Source of the DNA: an uncultured Nitrososphaeraceae archaeon
GTDB taxonomy: Archaea > Thermoproteota > Nitrososphaeria > Nitrososphaerales > Nitrososphaeraceae
Assembly: GCA_963825865.1 (NCBI GenBank)
Contig: CAWGVG010000021.1
Coordinates: 32,001-96,000, forward strand
Length of the DNA: 64,000 nucleotides
Reading direction: 5' to 3'
Both the position numbers and the translations under genes were made by a program. A model generated the notes under the pieces. It was not told where the DNA came from. It saw only the letters and a list, made by a program, of their open reading frames with translations, and did not search any database. Below, one piece after another: positions 1 through 18,170 of the stretch (within the stretch, counting starts at the first letter, position 1; each line of letters opens with the position of its first letter).

Positions 1-616
1 TCCGCTGAGCGGAAATCCAAATTCAATATTTATCTGTGGAAACGGCAAGAGTCTAGGTAAGAGCATAGGTATCATAAGCCTGTATCGAATATACGATAAA
101 TACAAGCAAGAACACTTTCCGAAACTATTGGAGAGTCCTAACGTTCCGCCTGAAGACAAGCAAAAAATTAAAGAATTGCTCAAGAAGCCCTGGAATCCAT
201 ACATCAGAAGGCATTCAGCATTGACAGACAAATCTAAGATATTGAAGGAACATGTATTAAGACAGTATGCAGGATGGTCTATAGGTTCGCAAATGCCTCA
301 AAAATATCTCCACTATTTTGGAAATGAATCAAACGAAAGTATCTTAGAAGCATATGGAATAGTTACTAAGGACAAACAATTTGCAGATGCATTGAGGCCA
401 AAACAGTGTCCCAACTGCAATGAGCCAAACAAACCAGATAGCAAGTTCTGTGCTAAATGTAGGATGGTATTAACATATGACGCTTACAATGAAACGATCG
501 AACAGAAAGAGCAGAACGACAAGCAGATTGAGACCTTAACAAAGAAGCAGGAACAGTTCGAGCAGTTAATTCAATCACTTATAGATTCAGGACAGTTGAC
601 TCCGGGTATTAAGTAG
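1..616 (+). CDS. Tyrosine recombinase/integrase, C-terminal part (5' end outside window), with C-terminal zinc ribbon and coiled coil
   Basis: NPYIRRHSALT (HxxR-equivalent box), YAGWS (H/W) and QKYLH (catalytic Tyr), followed by CPNC..FCAKC zinc ribbon; frame is open from the window start. Confidence 0.85.
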   Translation, partial: PLSGNPNSIFICGNGKSLGKSIGIISLYRIYDKYKQEHFPKLLESPNVPPEDKQKIKELLKKPWNPYIRRHSALTDKSKILKEHVLRQYAGWSIGSQMPQKYLHYFGNESNESILEAYGIVTKDKQFADALRPKQCPNCNEPNKPDSKFCAKCRMVLTYDAYNETIEQKEQNDKQIETLTKKQEQFEQLIQSLIDSGQLTPGIK

Positions 617-1600: not shown

Positions 1601-1818
1601 CGTATAACAGCTTGGATTTTCTTAGCAGATACTGCAGAAATAACAAGCATAACGAATGTTCTGGCATATGGCATGGATTAGGTATAGAAGTTTCCTGTTA
1701 TTGTAACTGTCATAGTAAAAAAGATAAGCAGGCGTTAGATTCGGTAGAGGGACCAGCAGCTAACGCCTTTCATCATATTCAGTTGTCTTCTTCTAAAGAG
1801 GTTAATCAAAGAAGATGA
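1597..1818 (+). CDS. Small Cys/His-rich putative zinc-binding protein
   Basis: CxxxxHxxC...CxCxCH; overlaps the genes on both sides (TTGA, ATGA). Confidence 0.6.
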   Translation: MTYNSLDFLSRYCRNNKHNECSGIWHGLGIEVSCYCNCHSKKDKQALDSVEGPAANAFHHIQLSSSKEVNQRR

Positions 1819-4800
1819 CAGTGAACTGATATAGCCTCTAAAGATAACAATAAACCTTTCGATAATTCTATTACTGTATATAAGAATAGTTCTACCGAAG
1901 AACTGACATATAATGATAATAATTATGATAGCATCCGGCCCGAACTATTAACAAAATACCTTGGGGCAGGTTTCAAGCTTGTACCTGTTGGGAAGGACTC
2001 GAAAACTCCTGCTGTTGATTCTACTAACGAGATTTACAATAATACTAATTACTGGACAGAAGAAAAGCTGGTAAAAGATTATTCCAGATTTTCAAATGTG
2101 GCTACTACGTTTGGTATAACTCATGTTAAGGACGGACATGGAAAAGAAGAAGTCTTGTATCTGCATTGTTTGGACATCGATAGCGATAATGTCTTAAGAC
2201 TCACATCTGATTCTGCTGGAAGAATTACAATCAAAAACATTTGTGACCAAGACGAAGAAAGATTGTAGATACCATGTATACTGGTTAAGTCATACACAGA
2301 ACCCTTCTATTGGAGTAAATAAGTGTAAGCGTGATTATGAATTTGAAATAAAAACTGATAATAGTTTGGGACTCTGCAGTTTGCCTCCTAGCCAACATAG
2401 AGACGATCCATATTTCAGATATCAATGTGTGGGACGAGAAATAAGATCGCTCTTGATGACGGACTTTATGATAAATTATTACAACTACTTTCAAAAGACT
2501 GTTTGATAAGTAATGATGACGATGATAATAATGACGAAGGGAAAAATACAAGAGAAGATGCCAGCAGAGCAAATAGAAGATCTAGATTTGAAACTGCTTA
2601 CAAGGATTTAACAGATACAGCTGTAGAGCAAGTAATAGCCCACGTCAAAGATAGTCTATCAGAAAGGATATAGAGATCCCATAGTTTTTGGCCTTTCTGG
2701 TTTATTGTTCAAAGGTAACGTAGCATTACCAAGTGCCAAAAATCTGATAGGTAGATTATGTGATTATGCTCAGGATGAAGAGAAAATCAATAGACTTGAA
2801 GTATTAAACAACACATATCTGAAAGGTTTAAACGGAAATGAAATAAAGGGAGTGACGCAACTTTTAGAGACTTTAACAACAATCCATGGTGGAAACAAAG
2901 GTTCCGCAACAAAAATTTTAAAAAATATTTGCCAGGTTTTGGATGAGGAGGAAGACGGGTCTAGCAAAAATGGTGCTACCCAGCTATTGATACAGTTAGC
3001 AAAGGATAACACTTTGCTATTTTTCAAGGACCAGTATGATATAACATATGCAAAGGTCAAGGTAGCACAGCATAGTGAGATAATAGCACTCGGAAGCGGT
3101 AAATTTGAATACTTTGTTAGCAAGATATATTACGACTATACCCGAGGGGAAGTAGTAGGCCAAGAATCATTAAACAACGCCATCCGTGTTCTAGTGGCAC
3201 AAACTCTGTTTGACAGTACAACGACTAGGACATTAAATTTAAGGGTTGCATGGGGAGAACAAAAAGGTAGAGGAAATCTATTATGACTTGGCAGACTCGG
3301 AACTGGCGATGCATCAAGATAACTCAACAACGATGGCACATAGTAGCACAAGACTCTCCTGTGTTATTTACCAGGTTCAATCAAAAGGCACAGGTTGAAC
3401 CAGATAGAAATTATTCAGATGATATATTTGACAAGTTTCTTGATCTAATGCATATTAATGACCAAGGACATAGATTATTGACCAAAGTCTGGATTGTATC
3501 GTTGCTGATACCGGATGTTCCACATCCCATTAATATTACATTTGGTGAAAAAGGTAGTTCAAAATCTACATTTTGTAGGTTTGTAAAGAGGCTTATTGAT
3601 CCAGACAAGATAGAACTACTAACCATTCCAAAGGACAAGTCAGAATTTGTACAGCAACTCTATCATAATTATCTTGCCGTGTATGATAACGTAAAAAAGT
3701 TGCCATATTGGTTTTCTGATGAAGCTTGCAAAGCTGTCACAGGAGTTGGTAACAGCAAAAGAAGTTTGTATACTAATGACGAAGACATAATTTACAACTA
3801 CAAGCGCTGTCTGATGATAAATGGCATCAACAACAGTCTAACTGAGCCTGATGCTTTAGACCGCAGCATATTAACAGAATTTGATAGAATATTCCTGAAC
3901 AAAGAAGGGAAGAAGCAAAGGTAGAAGCAGAGTTTGAGGAAATGCGAGCCTAAACTTCTAGGATATATTTTAGATATTTTAGTCAAGGCATTGCAAATCA
4001 AATCAACTATAGAATTAATCAATCTTCCTAGGATGGCTGATTTTGCAGTTTGGGGTGAAGCCATTGCAAGAGCCATGGGATATAAGCCGATGGAATTTGT
4101 TAATGCATACAACGAAAATATAGGAAGACAAAATGTAGAAGCAATTGAATCCAATCTATTAGCTCAGGCAATAGATAAGTTTGTTGACAGTTGGTATAAA
4201 GAAGAGCAAAAGGTAACCTTTGGGAAGGTTCAACTAAAGAAGCATTAGAACAATTAAACAAAATCTCCCAGGCATACAAAATAGATACCACCAGTAAAGC
4301 ATGGCCCAAAGCTGGCCAACTCTCTGACAAGAAGGCTAAGACCTATACTATCAAACCTACGTGAGGGTCTTGGAATTAATGTTGTTATCGGTAGACAAAC
4401 CACTAGTAACGGTACTGACAGTAAAAACAAAGAAGAATACGTCTACCATAAGAATAGAGAAAATATCTCCACTACCTCCACCATCTCCACCAGACCAAAA
4501 TCACGCACAAAATCAAGGCAAAAGCGGTGGAGATATTTTAGATAGTGGAGATAATATCTCCACCCAACAGCAAATACCTCCACCAGAAAATGGCCAAAAT
4601 CACGCTCAAAAAACAGAAAGTGGAGGTAGTGGACATAGTGGAGGTATTATTCCGACCTTAAAAGAGGAGAAAGTAGCAATACGGAAACATATGTTACAAA
4701 CAATCTTTAAAAAGATATGTTGCATTTGACTTCGAATGGTCATTCCTCGGAAGAATCTTCCTCTTCTACATGCAATTTTAGGACAGTCAGCCTTTGTGGA

Positions 4801-6692
4801 CAGTAATGGAAACTATAAGGTAATACATATATCAGATTATTCTGATAAAATCTGCTAATTCAGAAGCACGAACTTTTATTAAATATTAATCAAAGGAGCT
4901 GTTAAAGTATGACTATTCAATAGGATGGTATTCAACTGGTGTTGCTAAATACCACGAAGACACACAAGAATACCTTGATGGAGTTGACTCTGATCTTGTC
5001 GTATTACACAATAGGTGTATTGCAAATGGTATAGATTCTATAGTCAATTTTAACAGCGGGTACTCCATATATTAGAAGCCATCACATATCGACTTCACAA
5101 TGTTTTTAGCAAACCAATGGTGCAAACTATTATTTTCAAGAACGCGTATCGAATCTAAGACTAGATGAAGTATCAAAGGCAATATTATCAGATAATCTGA
5201 GGGTCTAGGAGTAATGAACAGGAAAATACAGAGGACTAACAGGCAAAGACATTCAATCCTTTCAGTTGAAGAGCAGAAGAAGTATGTTCTACGGGATGCA
5301 GGATGGTAATGCGACTTTCAAAGCATAACAATAGTGAAGTTCTTGATGCTATGAAGGCATATCAGAGATAACTGGACTTGAGTTTTGAAAGAGTATGTAG
5401 GACTGGAATATCAACGTGGTGGGCAGCTATTTTTGATAAGATGGTACATGATGGAGAATGTGAAGAACCACCTGTGGTTGCTTCAATTGAGAGAATCAAG
5501 AACAAAAATCTGAAATACAATATATTGGGGGAATTGTCCTTCAACCAAAAAAGGGACTTTATCATAACTTGATTGTTGTAGACGTTACTAGTTTATACCC
5601 TACAATGGCAATACTTCACAACATATCATTTGATACAGTTAACTGTGGATGCTGTGAAGATAATCTTGCAATGCAGAATAGACAAAGGAATTACAAAGGA
5701 CTGCAAAATAGAAAAAGAGTATTGGGTATGCAAACAAAAAGAAGGTTCATTTCCAAAGAAGTTAAAAGTATTCAGAGAAGAGAGACTAAAACAAAAGAAT
5801 CTAGGAAATCAAGTTAAAACAGCTAGCATTAAAGACTCTAATCAATGGTGGATATGGTGTCTTTGGAAGTCGATATTTCAAGTATTATGGCCCAAGGGTG
5901 GCAGAACTAATCACAGCTTATGGTAGATTCACTCTATTAAGAATGCAAGAAATTGCCAAAAGTATGGGATTTGAGATTGTCTACGGTGACACTGACTCTT
6001 TATTCCTTTACAACCCATCTTATGGCAGTAGTGGAGCCGTTCCAAGCCGTGATATTATTTCAAGATTCCAAGAAGAATGTGGTAAGCAATTAGGTGTTGA
6101 AGCCGAGCATGCCAAAACATACCAAACTGCAGTAATTTCTGATAAGAAAAAACATTATGTTGGTTGGACTGTCATAGAAGGAAAAGAACCAGACATTGTA
6201 GGAATGGAAGGAGATAAGAATGATAGGCCTAAATGGATTAACACTGTTTTTAGACAGACAGTACGTGACATTGTTAATAACGCAGATCCTATAGTTAATC
6301 TACGGAAAGCAATTTCGGGTTTAGAATCAGGTCATGTAGATCCAGAATTACTAAAAAGATTTAATAGGCTATCCAAAAATCCAGAAGAATATGAGAACGA
6401 AAATGATCGTAAACGCAAGATAGGGTTAGCAATTGGTGCGAGAAAAGGAGATATTATCGAGTATTTCGAATCAGACAACAATAAAGAGGGATATTCTCTA
6501 AATCCGCAAGACATCAGTGTTAAGAAATACAAGATTATGCTGTGGAAAGCAGTCAAGGACATTCTGGAAATTGCAGGTTATGATACTGCAGCATTAGAAC
6601 ATGAATTAGTTTATACAAACATGACCACACAGCAAAGCCTCCCAGTGGCGTGGTCGGGTTACGCTAATTTGCATACAGGAGGTGAGATATAA
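1815..6692 (+). CDS. Putative fused replicase: PrimPol-type primase, SF3-like helicase, Pro/Gly linker, 3'-5' exonuclease and family B DNA polymerase (many indels)
   Basis: PrimPol motifs GFKLVPV..K.P, CLDID, YHVYW, LPPSQH; helicase GEKGSSKST (Walker A), LAVYDN (Walker B), INGIN, DALDRS; PolB YVAFDFEW (ExoI), YVLRDA (ExoIII), DVTSLYP, K..INGGYG, YGDTDS, KKHY; no in-frame start codon for the PolB part. Confidence 0.7.
4465..4645. repeat. Iteron-like array: ten 9-bp AYCTCCACY units in inverted symmetry (putative element origin)
   Basis: Forward units at 4465, 4474, 4483, 4556, 4576; reverse units at 4526, 4544, 4619, 4628, 4637; CCAAAATCACGC also occurs twice. Confidence 0.8.
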
Positions 6693-6693
6693 T

Positions 6694-7049
6694 TTGGCAT
6701 CAGAAAGTCAAGTATTAAGTCCTAAAGCCAAGGAAAATTTGCAGAGAAATGCAGAGTGTAAGACAAAAGGACAACAAGTTTATAAAAATAGAGCCAAGCG
6801 AGAAGAGAATTTTGCAATTCAATCCAGAGAAAATCGAGCAAGTAGAAGCAGAATTTAACGGAAAGAAGAGTCAAAGATATAGATACACAGTTACAGACCC
6901 AGCAGTGGAGCAATCAAGAAAAGTATCTAGAAGTAGGAAAACGAACTTCTGAAGACATTGACGCATATTTAAGTGAAGGAAAAACATTACTTAAAATTCA
7001 AAGGTTTGGCTTAGGCAAGGATACACGATACCACGTTACACCTGCCTAA
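6694..7049 (+). CDS. Putative phage/plasmid-type single-stranded DNA-binding protein (frameshifted)
   Basis: GGAGGTGA RBS before TTG; FIKIEPSEKRILQF and C-terminal LKIQRFGLGKDTRYHVTPA resemble the I.R.G.G.DT.Y motif of phage OB-fold SSBs. Confidence 0.55.
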
Positions 7050-12288: not shown

Positions 12289-12563
12289 ACCTCCACTATC
12301 TCCACTACCTCCACCAAAGCCAAACTCGTGCTCAAATTTAGTCCAAAAACGGTGGAGATATTCTTAGTTGCTGTATACAATATCTCCACCTTTCAACAAA
12401 TACCTCCACCTAATAGTGCAGAAAATAATGTGCCAGCCATTGACGGTGGAGATATTGCAGCCATTGGTGGACATATGCCTTTACGATACCTCCACTAAAA
12501 GAAGTAAAATCATATTCCTTTTTCAAAATAAGCAAAAGTGGAGATGGTGGAGATAGTGGACAT
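12289..12563. repeat. Second AYCTCCACY iteron array (12 units), homologous to 4465-4645
   Basis: Forward units at 12289, 12298, 12307, 12382, 12402, 12488; reverse units at 12351, 12445, 12466, 12537, 12546, 12555. Confidence 0.8.
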
Positions 12564-13121: not shown

Positions 13122-14119
13122 TGCTCTGTTGCATAATTCATTAGGATTTTAGGTTATGCAAACCGTTAGTAGGTTATTCGATTGAACATGTTATACAGAG
13201 CTGCCTTTAGGAGGATCTCTTTTACCATGTGAGGAAACTTTCTAGCTGTTACATGTTCACCAAATGTTCTTTTAATGGAAGAGAATGCTGTTTCTGCTAT
13301 CCACCTGTACCCATAGCTCACGCTACGCTTCCATTTTTTGAGGTTTGCTTGTTGTCTTACTACAGACATATTCCTAGCATAACAGTTAGTTGACTTGACC
13401 TTGGAATTACTTCTTGTCTTTATACCAGGCTTAATGTGGTTCTTTGATAGGTATCTAAAATTCTTATTGCTGTTGTACATACCATCTGCTAATATACCCT
13501 TCAGATTATTATTTTCAGAAGCATTGTCTACTAACTTCTTTAGCATCTTACCATCATGTACCTCTTCACTTGTTACCTCCAGAGATACAATTCTTTTCTT
13601 CTCGATATCAACTGCTATGTGTATCTTTAGATATCCTTTTCTGACATGCCATTTGTGGTGCATCCATTCCCCTCGATTAGCTACCTTAATGCCGGTGCTG
13701 TCTAAAGCAATGACAATATCATTTCCTAATTTTTCATCGATTTTAATCTCTAGCCTGTTTATACGTCTATTAATGGTACTATAATGTGGTGTGTTTGATA
13801 CTTCTTTACTTGCATGAGCTATGACTACACCCTGTGTTTGTCTATATGGTAGATGGAAATATGCTCTCATGTAACCTAGAAGCTGAATAAATGAATTTGG
13901 GTAGCAGTAGGGCTCACCAACCTTACCAAGGTTCATTTGACATAATTCATGATCCCATCCATCAAGTACATCAAAATCCAAGAGTACTTGACCACGCCTA
14001 ACTAGTGATTCATTATAGCAAGGCCAGTCAACCATACCAGAATAATTAATACTAGCAAGCTAAATGGTGAGTGGTCAAATAAGTATCACTTACAAGATAA
14101 TTAATCATGCAACAAAGCA
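13122..14119 (-). mobile_element. IS5-family (IS903-like) insertion sequence, copy 1
   Basis: TIRs TGCTCTGTTGCAT / ATGCAACAAAGCA; 8-bp TSD GGATTTAT at 13114-13121 and 14120-14127. Confidence 0.95.
13166..14035 (-). CDS. IS5-family DDE transposase
   Basis: DWPCYNESLVRRG, ALDSTG, KIHIAVD, LADG.Y, RWIAETAFSSIKR. Confidence 0.95.
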   Translation of the reverse strand: MVDWPCYNESLVRRGQVLLDFDVLDGWDHELCQMNLGKVGEPYCYPNSFIQLLGYMRAYFHLPYRQTQGVVIAHASKEVSNTPHYSTINRRINRLEIKIDEKLGNDIVIALDSTGIKVANRGEWMHHKWHVRKGYLKIHIAVDIEKKRIVSLEVTSEEVHDGKMLKKLVDNASENNNLKGILADGMYNSNKNFRYLSKNHIKPGIKTRSNSKVKSTNCYARNMSVVRQQANLKKWKRSVSYGYRWIAETAFSSIKRTFGEHVTARKFPHMVKEILLKAALYNMFNRITY

Positions 14120-15504
14120 GGATTTATGATCAAATTAAGGATGACATTTACCCTTTTGTGAATTTGTACATTTTGTCTAAGGTGGCACGTATAGATACAC
14201 AACAGGTGGTCAGACTTCTTACAATCGCTAATAATGATCTACCATCAGTACAATGGAGATGTGAAAAACTCAAAAGAGAAGAAGCGTCTCTAAAAGCTGG
14301 TAATCAGAATTCTGCTATGATTTTGCAGGAATTAAGCGACCAGATATCAGATTTACGAAATACATCAGACTCCTGTCGTTTATCATTAGAAGAAGAAAAA
14401 AGACAAATGGCTGAGCTGCGCCAACAAAAGATGAACCAAGAAGCACTTGTAAATGACTTTCAAAACGGTAATGAAGAATTTATCAAAATCATAAAAACTG
14501 TTGAAGAAAAAGTGGTTAGTATTTTGTCAAATGCAAAAGTGCTTCTAAGATGTGCACTTTTGTCTATAACTGAATCAATAACAAATAACCCAGAAAGATT
14601 TAGGTTGATTTTTTACAATATGCCTTCAATAATAGATTGTTACGACAGTAATGGCCAGGATTACGCTACATCCTATATGTATGGAGGACAAATACGACAA
14701 TCACAACAGTACCCATCACCGAATTATAATACTGAAGCTAATGTAGCTATGATAGTAGGTGAAGCTGAAAAACTTTACAATAAGATAGTAAAAGATTGTA
14801 TAAGCAAAGTTGTTGCTGATTATGCTGTTAACAAATCATCATTACCATTGTTACCACCACCCAATGAAGAACAAAAGTCACCTAACATCAACTAGAAGAA
14901 CACACATTCATTCGATACCAAATGAGGACGAAGTTAATTAAAGAGTGATAATAGCGTCATTTTTATTATTGGTCTGATTAATCCCCAACTATGCAAATAT
15001 GAAAAACGTGCAAAGATGTTTAATTACAAATATATAGGTAAGGTGATTGGTAAAAGAGAGAACAAGCCTTTTCTCCCCAGATTTCTTACAGAAAAAGCTA
15101 TCAGAACAGCCTTGCAGAATCTGTACGTATCCTTTGTGAAATGTACATAAATAATAAATGAAAATGCCAGAACATTGCTTGAAAAAGACTTAAGTAATAT
15201 TAGCATGTATCTTGCAAAAGGAAACGAGCGTGTAAGGGCGTCTTTCATAGCCGCAGTCTCATGGTTAGCTCTTGGTAGCAAATTTGCCTTGGCATATGAG
15301 ATCTTCGCTGAACAGATTCTCGAATCGGCTCGTTGCGCTGCTCGCTTCATCATGAGTATTAGGAGATTTTCCTCTCCTACGGCTACACTTGATGGAATTA
15401 TCTTCGCAAGATCTGATCCATACTACATGTATATATATTTGTCAAGTTGCTAAATGTCTCGATAGGTAATATTTTTCATGTCGTTATAGCAGATACATTA
15501 CAAC

Positions 15505-16911
15505 ATGCTAAATTCAGAAGAGAGCACGAATTCATCCTCATTGTCACCTACGTCTACATCACCACCTTCACGACCACCAATAATCTCAGCAATTTCCTCA
15601 TTAAAATTTCCATTTAAGCTTACAAAGGATCAGCTTGAAGCGGTTGATGCATGGATAACAAATGGCTATAGAGGTTCGATAATATACAGTACTGGCACGG
15701 GCAAAACAGAAATAGCATTTGAATGCGCAAAAAGAGCGTGTGAAGCAATAGAACATAAAGAAGATAATAAATCGTCATTTAATATCCTCTTTCTTGTACC
15801 ACGAATTGTACTATTACAGCAGAATATAGACAGGCTAATAAGATATGGTATTGCTCAAGAGAGAATAGGAACATATTTCGGAGAGCGCAAGGAAGTACGA
15901 GAAATAACGATAAGCACGTACCAGAGTGTAATTAGCAATCTTGATCTTTTTAATAATTCTAACATGGTCATATTTGATGAAGTGCATTTAGTAAGTGACA
16001 CTGCTACAACTTTGAGAAAGGTGTTTGATTTTGTAACTGCTGCTGATCCTAAAAAACCATTATTAGGTCTAACCGCAACAATAGATGAACAAGATCCTAG
16101 ATACAACACAATACTGTCATTGCTGCCGCCAGTCAAAAAATATATGATAAGAGATGCTGTGAAAGATAAGCGATTAGCAAGGCCTGTTGTTATTCCAATA
16201 AAAGTTAATCTAACACATAATGAACAAAAGATCTATAATGAATGCTCTACTAAAATCAGAAACATCTCCGGCTATCTTAATACCTCTGACCCCAAATCAA
16301 TATCTTCTCTATTAAGGAGAGGAGGAGGACGAACAGCTGGACTAGCGAGAGCATGGTTTGCAAATGTTAAAGAGAGAAAGAATTTAATTAACTGTGCCAA
16401 AAATAAACTGTCAGCAGCAGTAGATATCATAGCAACAAAACATCGTTCTGAAAGGATTATGGTGTTTAGTGAAACTATAGAATCAATCCAAAAATTAAAG
16501 GAAATGTTACAAAGTAAAGGAATAGAATCCATGCTAATTGATAGCAAACTAAAATCAAAGGAAAGACAAAAAATACTATCAGCATGGGGAAAAGAATTTT
16601 TTCCATTACTTTCAGTACATACGCTAGAAATAGGATATGACGTACCTGAAGTTAGAGTGGGAATAATATTAGCAACGACATCTAATATGAACCAAATAGT
16701 ACAAAGAATAGGTAGAACAATAAGAAAGACTGAAGCGAAAGATACAGCATTGATATACACTATATATCTATCAGAGACTCGTGATGCCAGCACTCTGAAG
16801 ATGGTAAGACAAGCAACAGATGTAGGAGTCGAAAATAAGGATAAGAAAAAGCCAAGAGACAACAGAAGCTTATCCTCTAATAACGATAATCTGGATAGAT
16901 ATATCATTTAA
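15505..16911 (+). CDS. xpb: XPB/Rad25-like superfamily 2 helicase
   Basis: Q motif, TGTGKT, FDEVH, GLTAT, GYDVP, QRIGR. Confidence 0.85.
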   Translation: MLNSEESTNSSSLSPTSTSPPSRPPIISAISSLKFPFKLTKDQLEAVDAWITNGYRGSIIYSTGTGKTEIAFECAKRACEAIEHKEDNKSSFNILFLVPRIVLLQQNIDRLIRYGIAQERIGTYFGERKEVREITISTYQSVISNLDLFNNSNMVIFDEVHLVSDTATTLRKVFDFVTAADPKKPLLGLTATIDEQDPRYNTILSLLPPVKKYMIRDAVKDKRLARPVVIPIKVNLTHNEQKIYNECSTKIRNISGYLNTSDPKSISSLLRRGGGRTAGLARAWFANVKERKNLINCAKNKLSAAVDIIATKHRSERIMVFSETIESIQKLKEMLQSKGIESMLIDSKLKSKERQKILSAWGKEFFPLLSVHTLEIGYDVPEVRVGIILATTSNMNQIVQRIGRTIRKTEAKDTALIYTIYLSETRDASTLKMVRQATDVGVENKDKKKPRDNRSLSSNNDNLDRYII

Positions 16912-17174: not shown

Positions 17175-18170
17175 TCAACAGTCTATTGCTGCTAATAGTT
17201 TATTTTCAGCACAATTGATCAAATTCTTTCTATTTTTAACATTTGCAAACCATGCTCTAACTAATCCAGCTGTATGTCCTCCTTTTCTTAATAGAGAAGA
17301 TAGTGATTTGGGATCAGAGGTATTAAGGAATTCAGAAATGTTTCTGATTTTAGCAGAGCATTCATCATAGATTTTTTTCTCATTATGTGTCAGATTAACT
17401 TTTATTGGAATAACAACAGGCTGTGCTAATCTTTTATCTTTCACAGCATCTTTTATCATATATTTTTTGACTGGCGGCAGCAATGACAGTATTGTATTGT
17501 ATTTAGGATCTTGTTCATCTATTGTTGCGGTTAGGCCTAATAATAATGGCTTCTTTTGGCGATGCGTTGTTGCTGCTATTACAGCATCAAATATTTTTCT
17601 CAAAGTTGTAGCGGTATCGCTTATTAAATGTACCTCGTCGAATACTATCATGTTAGAATGATAAATGAGATTAAGGTCGTTAATTACACTCTGGTACGTG
17701 CTTATTGTTATTTCACGCATTTCTTTGCGCTCTCCAAAATATGCTCCTATACGATATTGGGAAATGCCATATTTTATTAGCCTGTTAATATTCTGCTCTA
17801 CTAGAATAATGCGCGGTACTAGAAAGAGTATATTGAAAGAGTTGTTGTTGATGGCATCATCATTACTATTATGATGGAATAAAATATTATTGTCTTTTGG
17901 ATGTACTATTGCTTCAGCCGACGCTCTTTTTGCACATTCAAATGCTATTTCTGTTTTGCCCGTGCCAGTACTATATATTATCGAACCTTTATAGCCATTT
18001 GATACCCAGGCATCAACCGCTTCAAGCTGATCCTTTGTAAGTTTAAATGGAAATTTAAGTGAGGAAATAGCTGATGATGAGGATGATACTATTGACGTAG
18101 ATTCTTCTGGTGCTGATGGTGTCGCTGATTTTTCTGCAGTTGTTTTTGAATTCAGCATATTGTAATACAC
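17175..18170 (-). pseudogene. Truncated second copy of the XPB-like helicase
   Basis: Highly similar to 15505-16911 up to KNKL.AA; lacks the C-terminal RecA domain (motifs IV-VI). Confidence 0.8.

Follow-up and report, generated by a model that had tools for sequence, protein, structure and literature searches.

A fused primase, helicase and family B DNA polymerase gene in a probable integrated element of a Nitrososphaeraceae archaeon

Can a single archaeal polypeptide combine a primase, a helicase and a proofreading family B DNA polymerase (PolB)? The question is raised by a 64,000-nucleotide (nt) stretch of DNA, here called the window, from the genome of an uncultured Nitrososphaeraceae archaeon (assembly GCA_963825865.1, designated G000; contig CAWGVG010000021.1, designated C21, positions 32,001 to 96,000), in which an initial annotation placed such a chain at 1815-6692. 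We are fairly confident that the region from about 1906 to 6692 is the gene for an all-in-one replicase belonging to an integrated element of about 18 kb. An intact relative referred to below is P0001, a 1709-amino acid (aa) protein of another genome of the family, G332.

The replicase gene and its intact relatives

Three-frame translation of the window located every motif named in the initial annotation, in the same order, between about 1906 and 6692, with the motifs spread over all three frames. The longest open reading frame (ORF) starting with ATG, GTG or TTG between 1815 and 6692 encodes 264 aa (5898..6692). Pfam searches of nine window fragments returned one relevant family, DNA_pol_B (PF00136) on 5898-6689 (E = 6.5e-10), and none for the other eight. 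The gene and its parts, with the evidence that places them, are:

1906..6692, plus strand: replicase gene, about 1590 codons long and spread here over some 25 alternating frames, encoding PrimPol, helicase, linker and PolB (threading onto relatives)
1906..2640, plus strand: archaeo-eukaryotic primase (AEP) domain of Prim-Pol type (motifs, blastx and hhalign)
2170-2187, 2264-2284 and 2384-2398, plus strand: primase motifs LDIDSD, CRYHVYW and PPSQH (three-frame translation)
3304..4440, plus strand: P-loop helicase, primase-linked superfamily 3 (SF3) type, with a C-terminal helix/strand domain (identity, invariant columns and fold matches)
3544-3570, plus strand: helicase Walker A motif GEKGSSKST (three-frame translation)
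3676-3693 and 3817-3834, plus strand: further helicase motifs AVYDNV and INGINN
4447..4660, plus strand: Pro-rich then Gly-rich linker, its DNA an inverted array of nine YCTCCAC words (+++--++--)
4706, plus strand: frame break at the helicase/PolB junction (+1 shift, extra base near TTTAAAAAG; frameshift-aware alignment)
4713..6692, plus strand: family B DNA polymerase lacking the usual N-terminal domain (ExoI-III at 4725-5300; motifs A, B, C and KxY at 5581-6158)
4725-4739, 4983-4997 and 5283-5300, plus strand: exonuclease motifs ExoI FDFEW, ExoII VDSDL and ExoIII YVLRDA
5581-5607, 5838-5867, 5982-5999 and 6144-6158, plus strand: polymerase motifs A (DVTSLYPTM), B, C (YGDTDS) and KKKHY
6690-6692, plus strand: stop codon TAA of the replicase

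When in-frame stops were penalized above frame shifts, the gene could be threaded onto three relatives with no stop at all. Window positions 1912-6719 covered residues 3-1580 of the 1586-residue P0016 with 34 frame corrections, the region covered residues 236-1687 of P0001 with 28, and P0020 was matched over nearly its full length with 32. Identity was 66% to P0001 across 1404 aligned codons (frameshift-aware alignment) and 69% to both P0016 and P0020, each aligned almost from end to end. The start codon cannot be fixed because the sequence is noisy here. Judged by these alignments, the window locus is a full-length member of a fused primase-helicase-PolB family.

The family itself is documented by uninterrupted genes. 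A 213-aa helicase fragment of the window matched 43 of 401 genomes of the order, and the match on contig C53 of G332 (80% identity) lies within a 1719-aa open frame whose ORF has an ATG start and 1709 codons. In its product, P0001, Pfam identifies Prim-Pol (residues 79-268, 1.5e-15) and DNA_pol_B (residues 1285-1604, 7.8e-38); between these domains come Walker A (GEKGSSKST, residue 640), a linker rich in Pro and Gly, and ExoI (FDFEW, residue 1024). Six loci in five other genomes (G332, G385 with two, G381, G456 and G415) each combine DxD, Walker A, ExoI and motif A within a single frame; these frames are 1382-1719 aa long, those outside G332 1382-1660 aa. Searching proteins of 939-2991 aa with the PolB part yielded 143 matches; many of the best 120 listed are 1350-1813 aa long, carry no annotation beyond DNA polymerase and originate from soil metagenomes or from Nitrososphaera and Nitrososphaeraceae metagenome-assembled genomes. 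A profile of the helicase (from alignment A1, described below) matched N-terminal to PolB motif A in 47 of 121 retrieved proteins.

A family-wide genome search found PolB matches in 196 of 238 genomes at E 1e-30, eight unpublished genomes entering this tally only. Among the best 150 of the 273 matches, frames of at least 1300 aa at the PolB match occurred in G332, G456, G385 (two), G415 (two), G381, G143 and G433 (two), and other genomes of the family carried members of the same PolB clade as stand-alone frames, about 650-760 aa in length. Because intact one-frame relatives exist and the helicase precedes PolB in those 47 proteins, the primase-helicase-PolB fusion is a real and recurrent gene architecture, and the single chain with a proofreading polymerase proposed for the window is borne out for the family.

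Eight protein clusters of 1067-1200 aa (P0054, P0056-P0061 and P0063) carry Prim-Pol, helicase and ExoI without polymerase motifs A or C. Truncated gene calls or split genes could account for them, as could a protein form that joins primase, helicase and exonuclease.

Predicted domains and known counterparts

Catalytic motifs of the AEP/Prim-Pol group are named I (DxD), II (sxH) and III. The window N-terminus is 48-57% identical to the N-termini of fused relatives of 1583-1612 aa (blastx). Pfam found no Prim-Pol match on the window fragments, P0020 or P0016; Prim-Pol (PF09250) was recognized in P0001 and in P0058 (4.5e-20). In hhalign, the window-type N-terminal group aligned with the Prim-Pol-positive group at 95.3% probability (E = 2.1e-8, 212 columns), placing LDIDSD, CRYHVYW and PPSQH against DIDGD, GRHIIF and APPSLH of P0001. 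Profile similarity, by way of this intact relative, and the catalytic motifs thus identify the domain, at the level of sequence, as an AEP/Prim-Pol primase. The short N-terminus of a subfamily of about 1390 aa gave no signal against Prim-Pol (hhalign probability 0.7%), and the basis for its primase nature is an FDID motif only.

Assignment of the polymerase to family B rests on PF00136, matched in both the window and P0001, and on all six motifs located in the window. The best match of P0001 in the PDB is 1s5j_A (1.8e-38; residues 1051-1631 against 218-791), the Saccharolobus solfataricus PolB1, which is the closest solved relative of the polymerase part and shares canonical ExoI-III and A-C motifs. 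The NCBIfam "DNA-directed DNA polymerase I" models also lead: NF004419 and NF004417 match P0001 at 1e-60, over profile positions 306-883 of 932 and 228-842 of 858 only. The scores fall far below the PolB1 equivalog cut-offs (205.3 bits against 1285 for NF004419; 201.5 against 780 for NF004417). The first 230-300 profile positions, which correspond to the N-terminal domain, have no counterpart, because ExoI directly follows the linker. Chromosomal PolB1 differs in having this domain, and the chromosomal PolB of about 900 aa found in nearly every genome of the family is only 28-32% identical to the replicase PolB among the matches listed. The protein-primed type (PF03175, DNA_pol_B_2) was absent from P0001, P0020, P0016, P0038 and P0049 at E 0.01-0.05; precomputed domain lists show it beside PF00136 in a few relatives.

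SF3 helicases are characterized by Walker A and Walker B motifs, a sensor asparagine (motif C) and an arginine finger in a compact ATPase core. The helicase part of the window is 69% identical to residues 560-930 of P0001. Alignment A1, of nine sequences, has invariant G121, K123, G124, K127 and S128; D168 and N169; K192 and R193; N216; and R227. These columns would fit Walker A, Walker B, a basic pair, the sensor asparagine and an arginine. No model in the Pfam, NCBIfam or PHROG libraries matched the helicase part, and its profile gave P-loop-level matches only against PDB sequences (best E = 0.033). The structural model had a mean predicted local distance difference test score (pLDDT) of 68.3, with core residues 142-221 below 50. 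Its Foldseek search returned no match at E 1e-3; the top ten comprised NrS-1, PriRep1 and poxvirus E5/D5 (E = 4.3e-3 to 3.3e-2, template modeling score about 0.3), with African swine fever virus PrimPol and the SaPI5 primase-helicase lower in the list. Motifs and weak fold matches together make SF3 the likely, rather than demonstrated, class. The helicase family is very large (7092 cluster representatives at E 1e-30, mostly 500-1000 aa); it dominated the search of representatives, which gave no usable count of fusions.

The predicted protein of about 1590 residues would therefore read, from N to C terminus, as a Prim-Pol primase, an alpha-helical middle, a P-loop helicase of SF3 kind, a Pro/Gly linker and PolB, with a small C-terminal helix/strand domain following the primase-linked SF3 core. 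Such a protein may form a helicase ring with primase and polymerase attached, and would prime and copy the element after excision.

We know of no biochemical characterization of chains that join an SF3 helicase, an AEP primase and PolB. In calling the combination uncharacterized, the initial annotation nevertheless overstated its novelty. The available text of two papers already reports it: Lactococcus phage 1706 gp55 unites an SF3 helicase, an AEP primase and PolB in one chain (Kazlauskas et al. 2016, PMC4889955), and a group of such proteins, with divergent motif C and KxY, has been named HelPrimPolB (Kazlauskas et al. 2020, PMC7544198). Like the window replicase, these chains place the three domains in one polypeptide, are products of mobile elements or viruses, and have been recognized through sequence analysis. 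The build differs. In gp55 (1317 aa, L058:13583-17533) the helicase (DUF5906, 181-292) comes first, followed by a primase-like part and PolB with motif C KTDS, whereas the window replicase has the order primase, helicase, PolB and canonical YGDTDS and KKKHY motifs. BLASTP aligned gp55 with P0001 over 63 residues only, around motifs B and C (E = 7e-4). The window protein thus falls outside HelPrimPolB in domain order, in its motifs and in the extent of this match, and none of 566 matching records in a phage collection covered 80% of P0001. The archaeal chain is most likely a fusion independent of phage HelPrimPolB, and the window replicase would be functionally like the phage proteins while built separately.

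Other counterparts share parts of the design. The Primpol-S3H replication protein of an archaeal plasmid, pRN1 ORF904, represents proteins with an N-terminal Prim-Pol, a helical linker and an SF3-type helicase, found also in integrase-bearing cryptic elements of ammonia-oxidizing archaea; unlike the window replicase, these end after the helicase and rely on another polymerase. Apicoplast PREX holds primase, helicase and proofreading polymerase in one chain and differs in its family A polymerase and DnaG/TOPRIM-type primase. The same two differences apply to Pas55 of Actinoplanes phage phiAsp2, which joins primase, helicase and a proofreading family A polymerase (PMC4889955, available text). 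In the text available, a survey of thaumarchaeal elements describes primpol-S3H fusions and treats PolB as encoded by genes of its own, with no mention of a triple fusion (Krupovic et al. 2019, PMC6563490). An archaeal primase-helicase-PolB chain is likewise not described in the available portions of PMC6563490, PMC7544198 and PMC5695915, although the group member lists of PMC7544198 may include such proteins, and PMC5862659 contains no occurrence of PolB or Thaumarchaeota. The archaeal family is apparently undescribed.

G000 holds at least four replicase copies related to the window gene (on C21, C15, C7 and C3) and 24 places matching Pfam DNA_pol_B, an unusual load of polymerase-bearing elements. 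One 829-aa frame, G000:C31:3586-6072 (L044), has the reverse order to the window replicase, with PolB first (DNA_pol_B 1.3e-35, 47-411), a primase-like DxD and GHGYH in between, and PriX C-terminal (2.5e-8, 728-825). The PolB and PriX pair also appears in the precomputed domain lists of metagenome proteins P0052 and P0055.

Frame breaks in the window gene

Two questions follow from the broken frames: whether helicase and polymerase are one gene in this organism, and whether that gene is intact. At the junction, the linker frame is stop-free over 4361..4729, a TAG stands at 4674-4676 in the ExoI frame, and the only nearby ATG (4691) belongs to the linker frame, all as initially annotated. The annotation had also placed one indel between 4677 and 4713 and held that correcting it would fuse the two halves. 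Frameshift-aware alignment puts the break within that interval, at 4706; the repair as a whole takes about 25-34 corrections along the gene, not the joining of two frames. The alternative of two genes, a primase-helicase ending in the linker and a separate PolB starting at about 4691-4725, would make the fusion a read-through artifact, and could draw on the TAG and on the stand-alone members of the same PolB clade. It is very improbable. Intact relatives from independent genomes and metagenome proteins run from helicase through linker to ExoI stop-free, none has a stop or restart at the junction, the C15 paralogue in G000 likewise has linker and ExoI in one shared frame, and the ATG that a separate PolB might use is in the wrong frame.

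Alignment of the window with P0001 returned 25 frame shifts and four in-frame stops (5206, 5212, 5215 and 5488). The stops were rejected as genuine: they vanish once stops cost more than shifts and were read as short mis-framed stretches. Decay was the first reading of the locus, given the 25 shifts, the absence of homopolymer bias (nine of 25 shifts at homopolymer sites, against a background of 0.31) and the broken state of the other copies in G000 (11 shifts on C15, 10 on C7, one shift and one stop on C3). The locus would then be a pseudogene in a fixed, immobile element that has kept its integrase and a replacement helicase while its replicase rots. This reading was dropped on two grounds, damage to essential genes and near-identical contigs that lack the indels, and we now regard it as unlikely.

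The damage is genome-wide. In the rpoB gene of G000 (in the region C44:20000-31000), 12 frame shifts and one stop were counted in 970 codons at 88% identity to G332, in which rpoB is one 1117-aa frame. The chromosomal polB (in the region C27:82000-90000) has five frame shifts in 891 codons relative to a 906-aa frame of G332. Across 4.98 Mb, G000 has a single stop-to-stop frame of at least 1000 aa and 149 of at least 500 aa; 37.7% of its bases lie in frames of at least 200 aa, and completeness is 81.8%. The G000 assembly is riddled with single-base indels, and the breaks in the window gene match those of its essential genes in kind and density. Because rpoB and polB are broken alike and long frames are missing throughout, broken frames in G000 carry little information; they are no evidence of pseudogenes, and pseudogene or frameshift findings in this genome need accurate reads first. 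Real decay should also yield stops as well as indels, and threading the replicase gene takes no nonsense substitution.

The second ground is provided by contigs of four further public runs, which resemble the window at 90-100%. Seven 1-nt indels separate them from the window (2655, 3272, 3303, 3892, 3949, 5664 and 5816), each no more than 2 nt from a predicted break (2656, 3272, 3303, 3892, 3951, 5665 and 5816), and the contigs that bear them are 94-99% alike to the window. The sole further indel listed is an in-frame 6-nt insertion at 1889. Near-identical sequence without the indel was thus found at every break with visible cover, the doubtful 6609 excepted. An assembly that received no polishing, or too little, produces this pattern of indel-only damage extending to essential genes. 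Since the damage is of this kind and shared with essential genes, the replicase gene is probably one intact ORF in the organism, and its breaks uncorrected single-base errors.

Several observations weigh on the other side. Break density here (25-34 per about 4.8 kb) exceeds that of polB (five per 2.7 kb) and, to a lesser degree, that of rpoB (12 per 2.9 kb), the two essential genes measured. Neighboring frames of 472 and 468 aa within the same element are unbroken; therefore either the noise is very uneven or the replicase gene has extra, real damage. The contigs come from other samples, so that near-identical intact sequence exists without this strain's copy thereby being intact, and no public run holds more than 0.08 of the sampled window words. 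None of the contigs listed visibly spans the breaks between 4204 and 5462. At 6609, a contig covers the break and agrees fully with the window; as the C3 paralogue has that frame too, this break is taken to reflect divergence of the C-terminal tail between lineages. Finally, the function of the protein is a prediction, and its helicase class leans on motifs and weak fold matches.

Linker DNA and the surrounding element

The features of the element beyond the replicase are:

1..613, plus strand: 3' two thirds of an integrase-like ORF, a 472-aa frame at G000:C21:31198-32613 that starts 802 bases before the window
6758..7046, plus strand: small conserved gene directly after the replicase, with one frame shift here (118 aa in G332)
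12290..12553, no strand assigned: second, non-coding iteron array of ten YCTCCAC words (+++-++-+--), followed by an AT-rich tract
15505..16911, plus strand: complete superfamily 2 (SF2) helicase gene within the element; 418 nt of it match the host 3' fragment at C21:30733-31150, in inverted orientation, at 88.5% identity
17183..17202, plus strand: right att-like repeat, its partner at C21:31130-31150, about 870-850 bases before the window

The DNA that encodes the replicase linker is itself organized. In the linker array, three tandem words at 9-nt spacing form the left arm, the right arm is inverted and the middle is mixed; the Pro-rich then Gly-rich peptide is the coding product of the two arms. 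YCTCCAC occurs 29 times in the window against 6.79 expected, a number reached in none of 100 shuffles, and the two arrays account for 19 of the 29 words. Across the genome the word has a background frequency of 0.16 per kb. The same array is present in the linkers of the C15 paralogue and the intact G332 gene, and in G332 it occurs again directly after the small downstream gene (L034:8911-9026). Other lineages have other words at the same place. The linker of G456 carries ATCTTCAC in the pattern +++--+-, and those of G385, G381 and G415 carry ATCGCCTG in the pattern ++--+---, each word being confined to the linker within the loci analyzed. Three lineages thus keep the layout and change the word, and the iteron word co-varies with protein lineage.

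Two well-known systems offer analogies. The phage P4 alpha protein is a primase-helicase that binds iterons in two separated clusters (ori and crr), and the lambda origin lies inside gene O, the coding sequence of its own initiator, within the stretch that encodes an interdomain linker. The likeness is to the two iteron clusters of P4 and to the origin within an initiator gene of lambda; neither protein has a fused polymerase. By this analogy the array is a candidate origin or initiator-binding site, and the predicted sites of action of the replicase would be the array in its own linker-coding DNA and the second array elsewhere in the element. We tentatively propose, as a serious possibility, that the replicase gene bears its own origin, the linker DNA being an iteron array bound by the C-terminal helicase domain of the protein.

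The repeats could instead reflect a low-complexity Pro/Gly spacer with no role at the DNA level, the origin lying elsewhere. Fused domains are often joined by flexible Pro/Gly linkers, the 10-12 kb loci of the ATCGCCTG lineage yielded no second array, and the linker of G143, the most distant fused form, has no repeated 8-mer. Only one of four testable loci with primase-helicase-only relatives has an array near the gene end. That last count also leaves unsupported so far the idea that the linker began as an intergenic origin and became coding sequence with the addition of PolB. A coding explanation fits poorly with the second array, which has the same word and arm layout in DNA that no stop-to-stop frame of more than 70 aa crosses, with the recurrence of the array after the small G332 gene and at orphan sites on C15, C53 and C55 against so low a background, and with the retention of layout across three lineages while the word changes. 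The spacer explanation is possible, on the doubtful side.

The orphan YCTCCAC arrays have the same mixed-orientation layout and lie off any replicase gene (C15:134094-134358, C15:144676-144923, C53:27422-27662 and C55:29187-29380); they are possible satellite origins or relics. A second word, approximately AATCRYGCTCAAA (peptide NRAQ or NHAQ), was observed within arrays at window positions 4495-4537, 4594-4636 and 12320-12362 and in the linker of locus L035. It is kept across lineages with differing iteron words and is also present in the non-coding array.

The integrative nature of the host element, proposed in the initial annotation, is supported by its probable ends. The att-like direct repeat (21 and 20 nt, 90% identity) is flanked by one split SF2 helicase gene, its 3' part at C21:30636-31139 and its 5' part at window positions 17175-18170, both on the minus strand; the left fragment matches Pfam Helicase_C (3e-19). 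The complete SF2 helicase gene inside the element is likely a replacement for this split target. At the left end, the integrase-like ORF has weak matches to Pfam Phage_int_SAM_1 (8.8e-5) and zinc ribbons, and no Pfam match to a catalytic domain. The small gene behind the replicase was found by tblastn in G332, G456 and G143, and also on C15, C3, C53 and C62 of G000. The model of its protein (pLDDT 79) had no Foldseek match at E 1e-3; the leading entries were single-stranded DNA binders with an oligonucleotide/oligosaccharide-binding fold (best E = 0.062). With this conserved gene trailing the replicase, the label of a whole replisome in one chain was too strong. A stretch of about 970 bases at 13170-14136, with a 289-aa ORF at 13166..14035 on the minus strand, has copies on C12, C14 and C15 that are 97-99% identical at the translated level, and is probably an insertion sequence inside the element.

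If the domains work as suggested, integrated elements of soil ammonia oxidizers would encode a compact archaeal replication machine, in which a ring helicase brings along both a primase and a proofreading polymerase. Archaeal elements would then have arrived independently at a second version of the helicase-primase-PolB chain known from phages. With priming, unwinding and synthesis coupled in one protein, the fused replicase would be tractable to study and a candidate for isothermal amplification of DNA without primers. The linker encoded by iterons would permit a direct test of an origin sited inside its initiator gene; if the tentative proposal is true, one ORF would supply initiator, primase, helicase, polymerase and origin, a minimal self-copying module.

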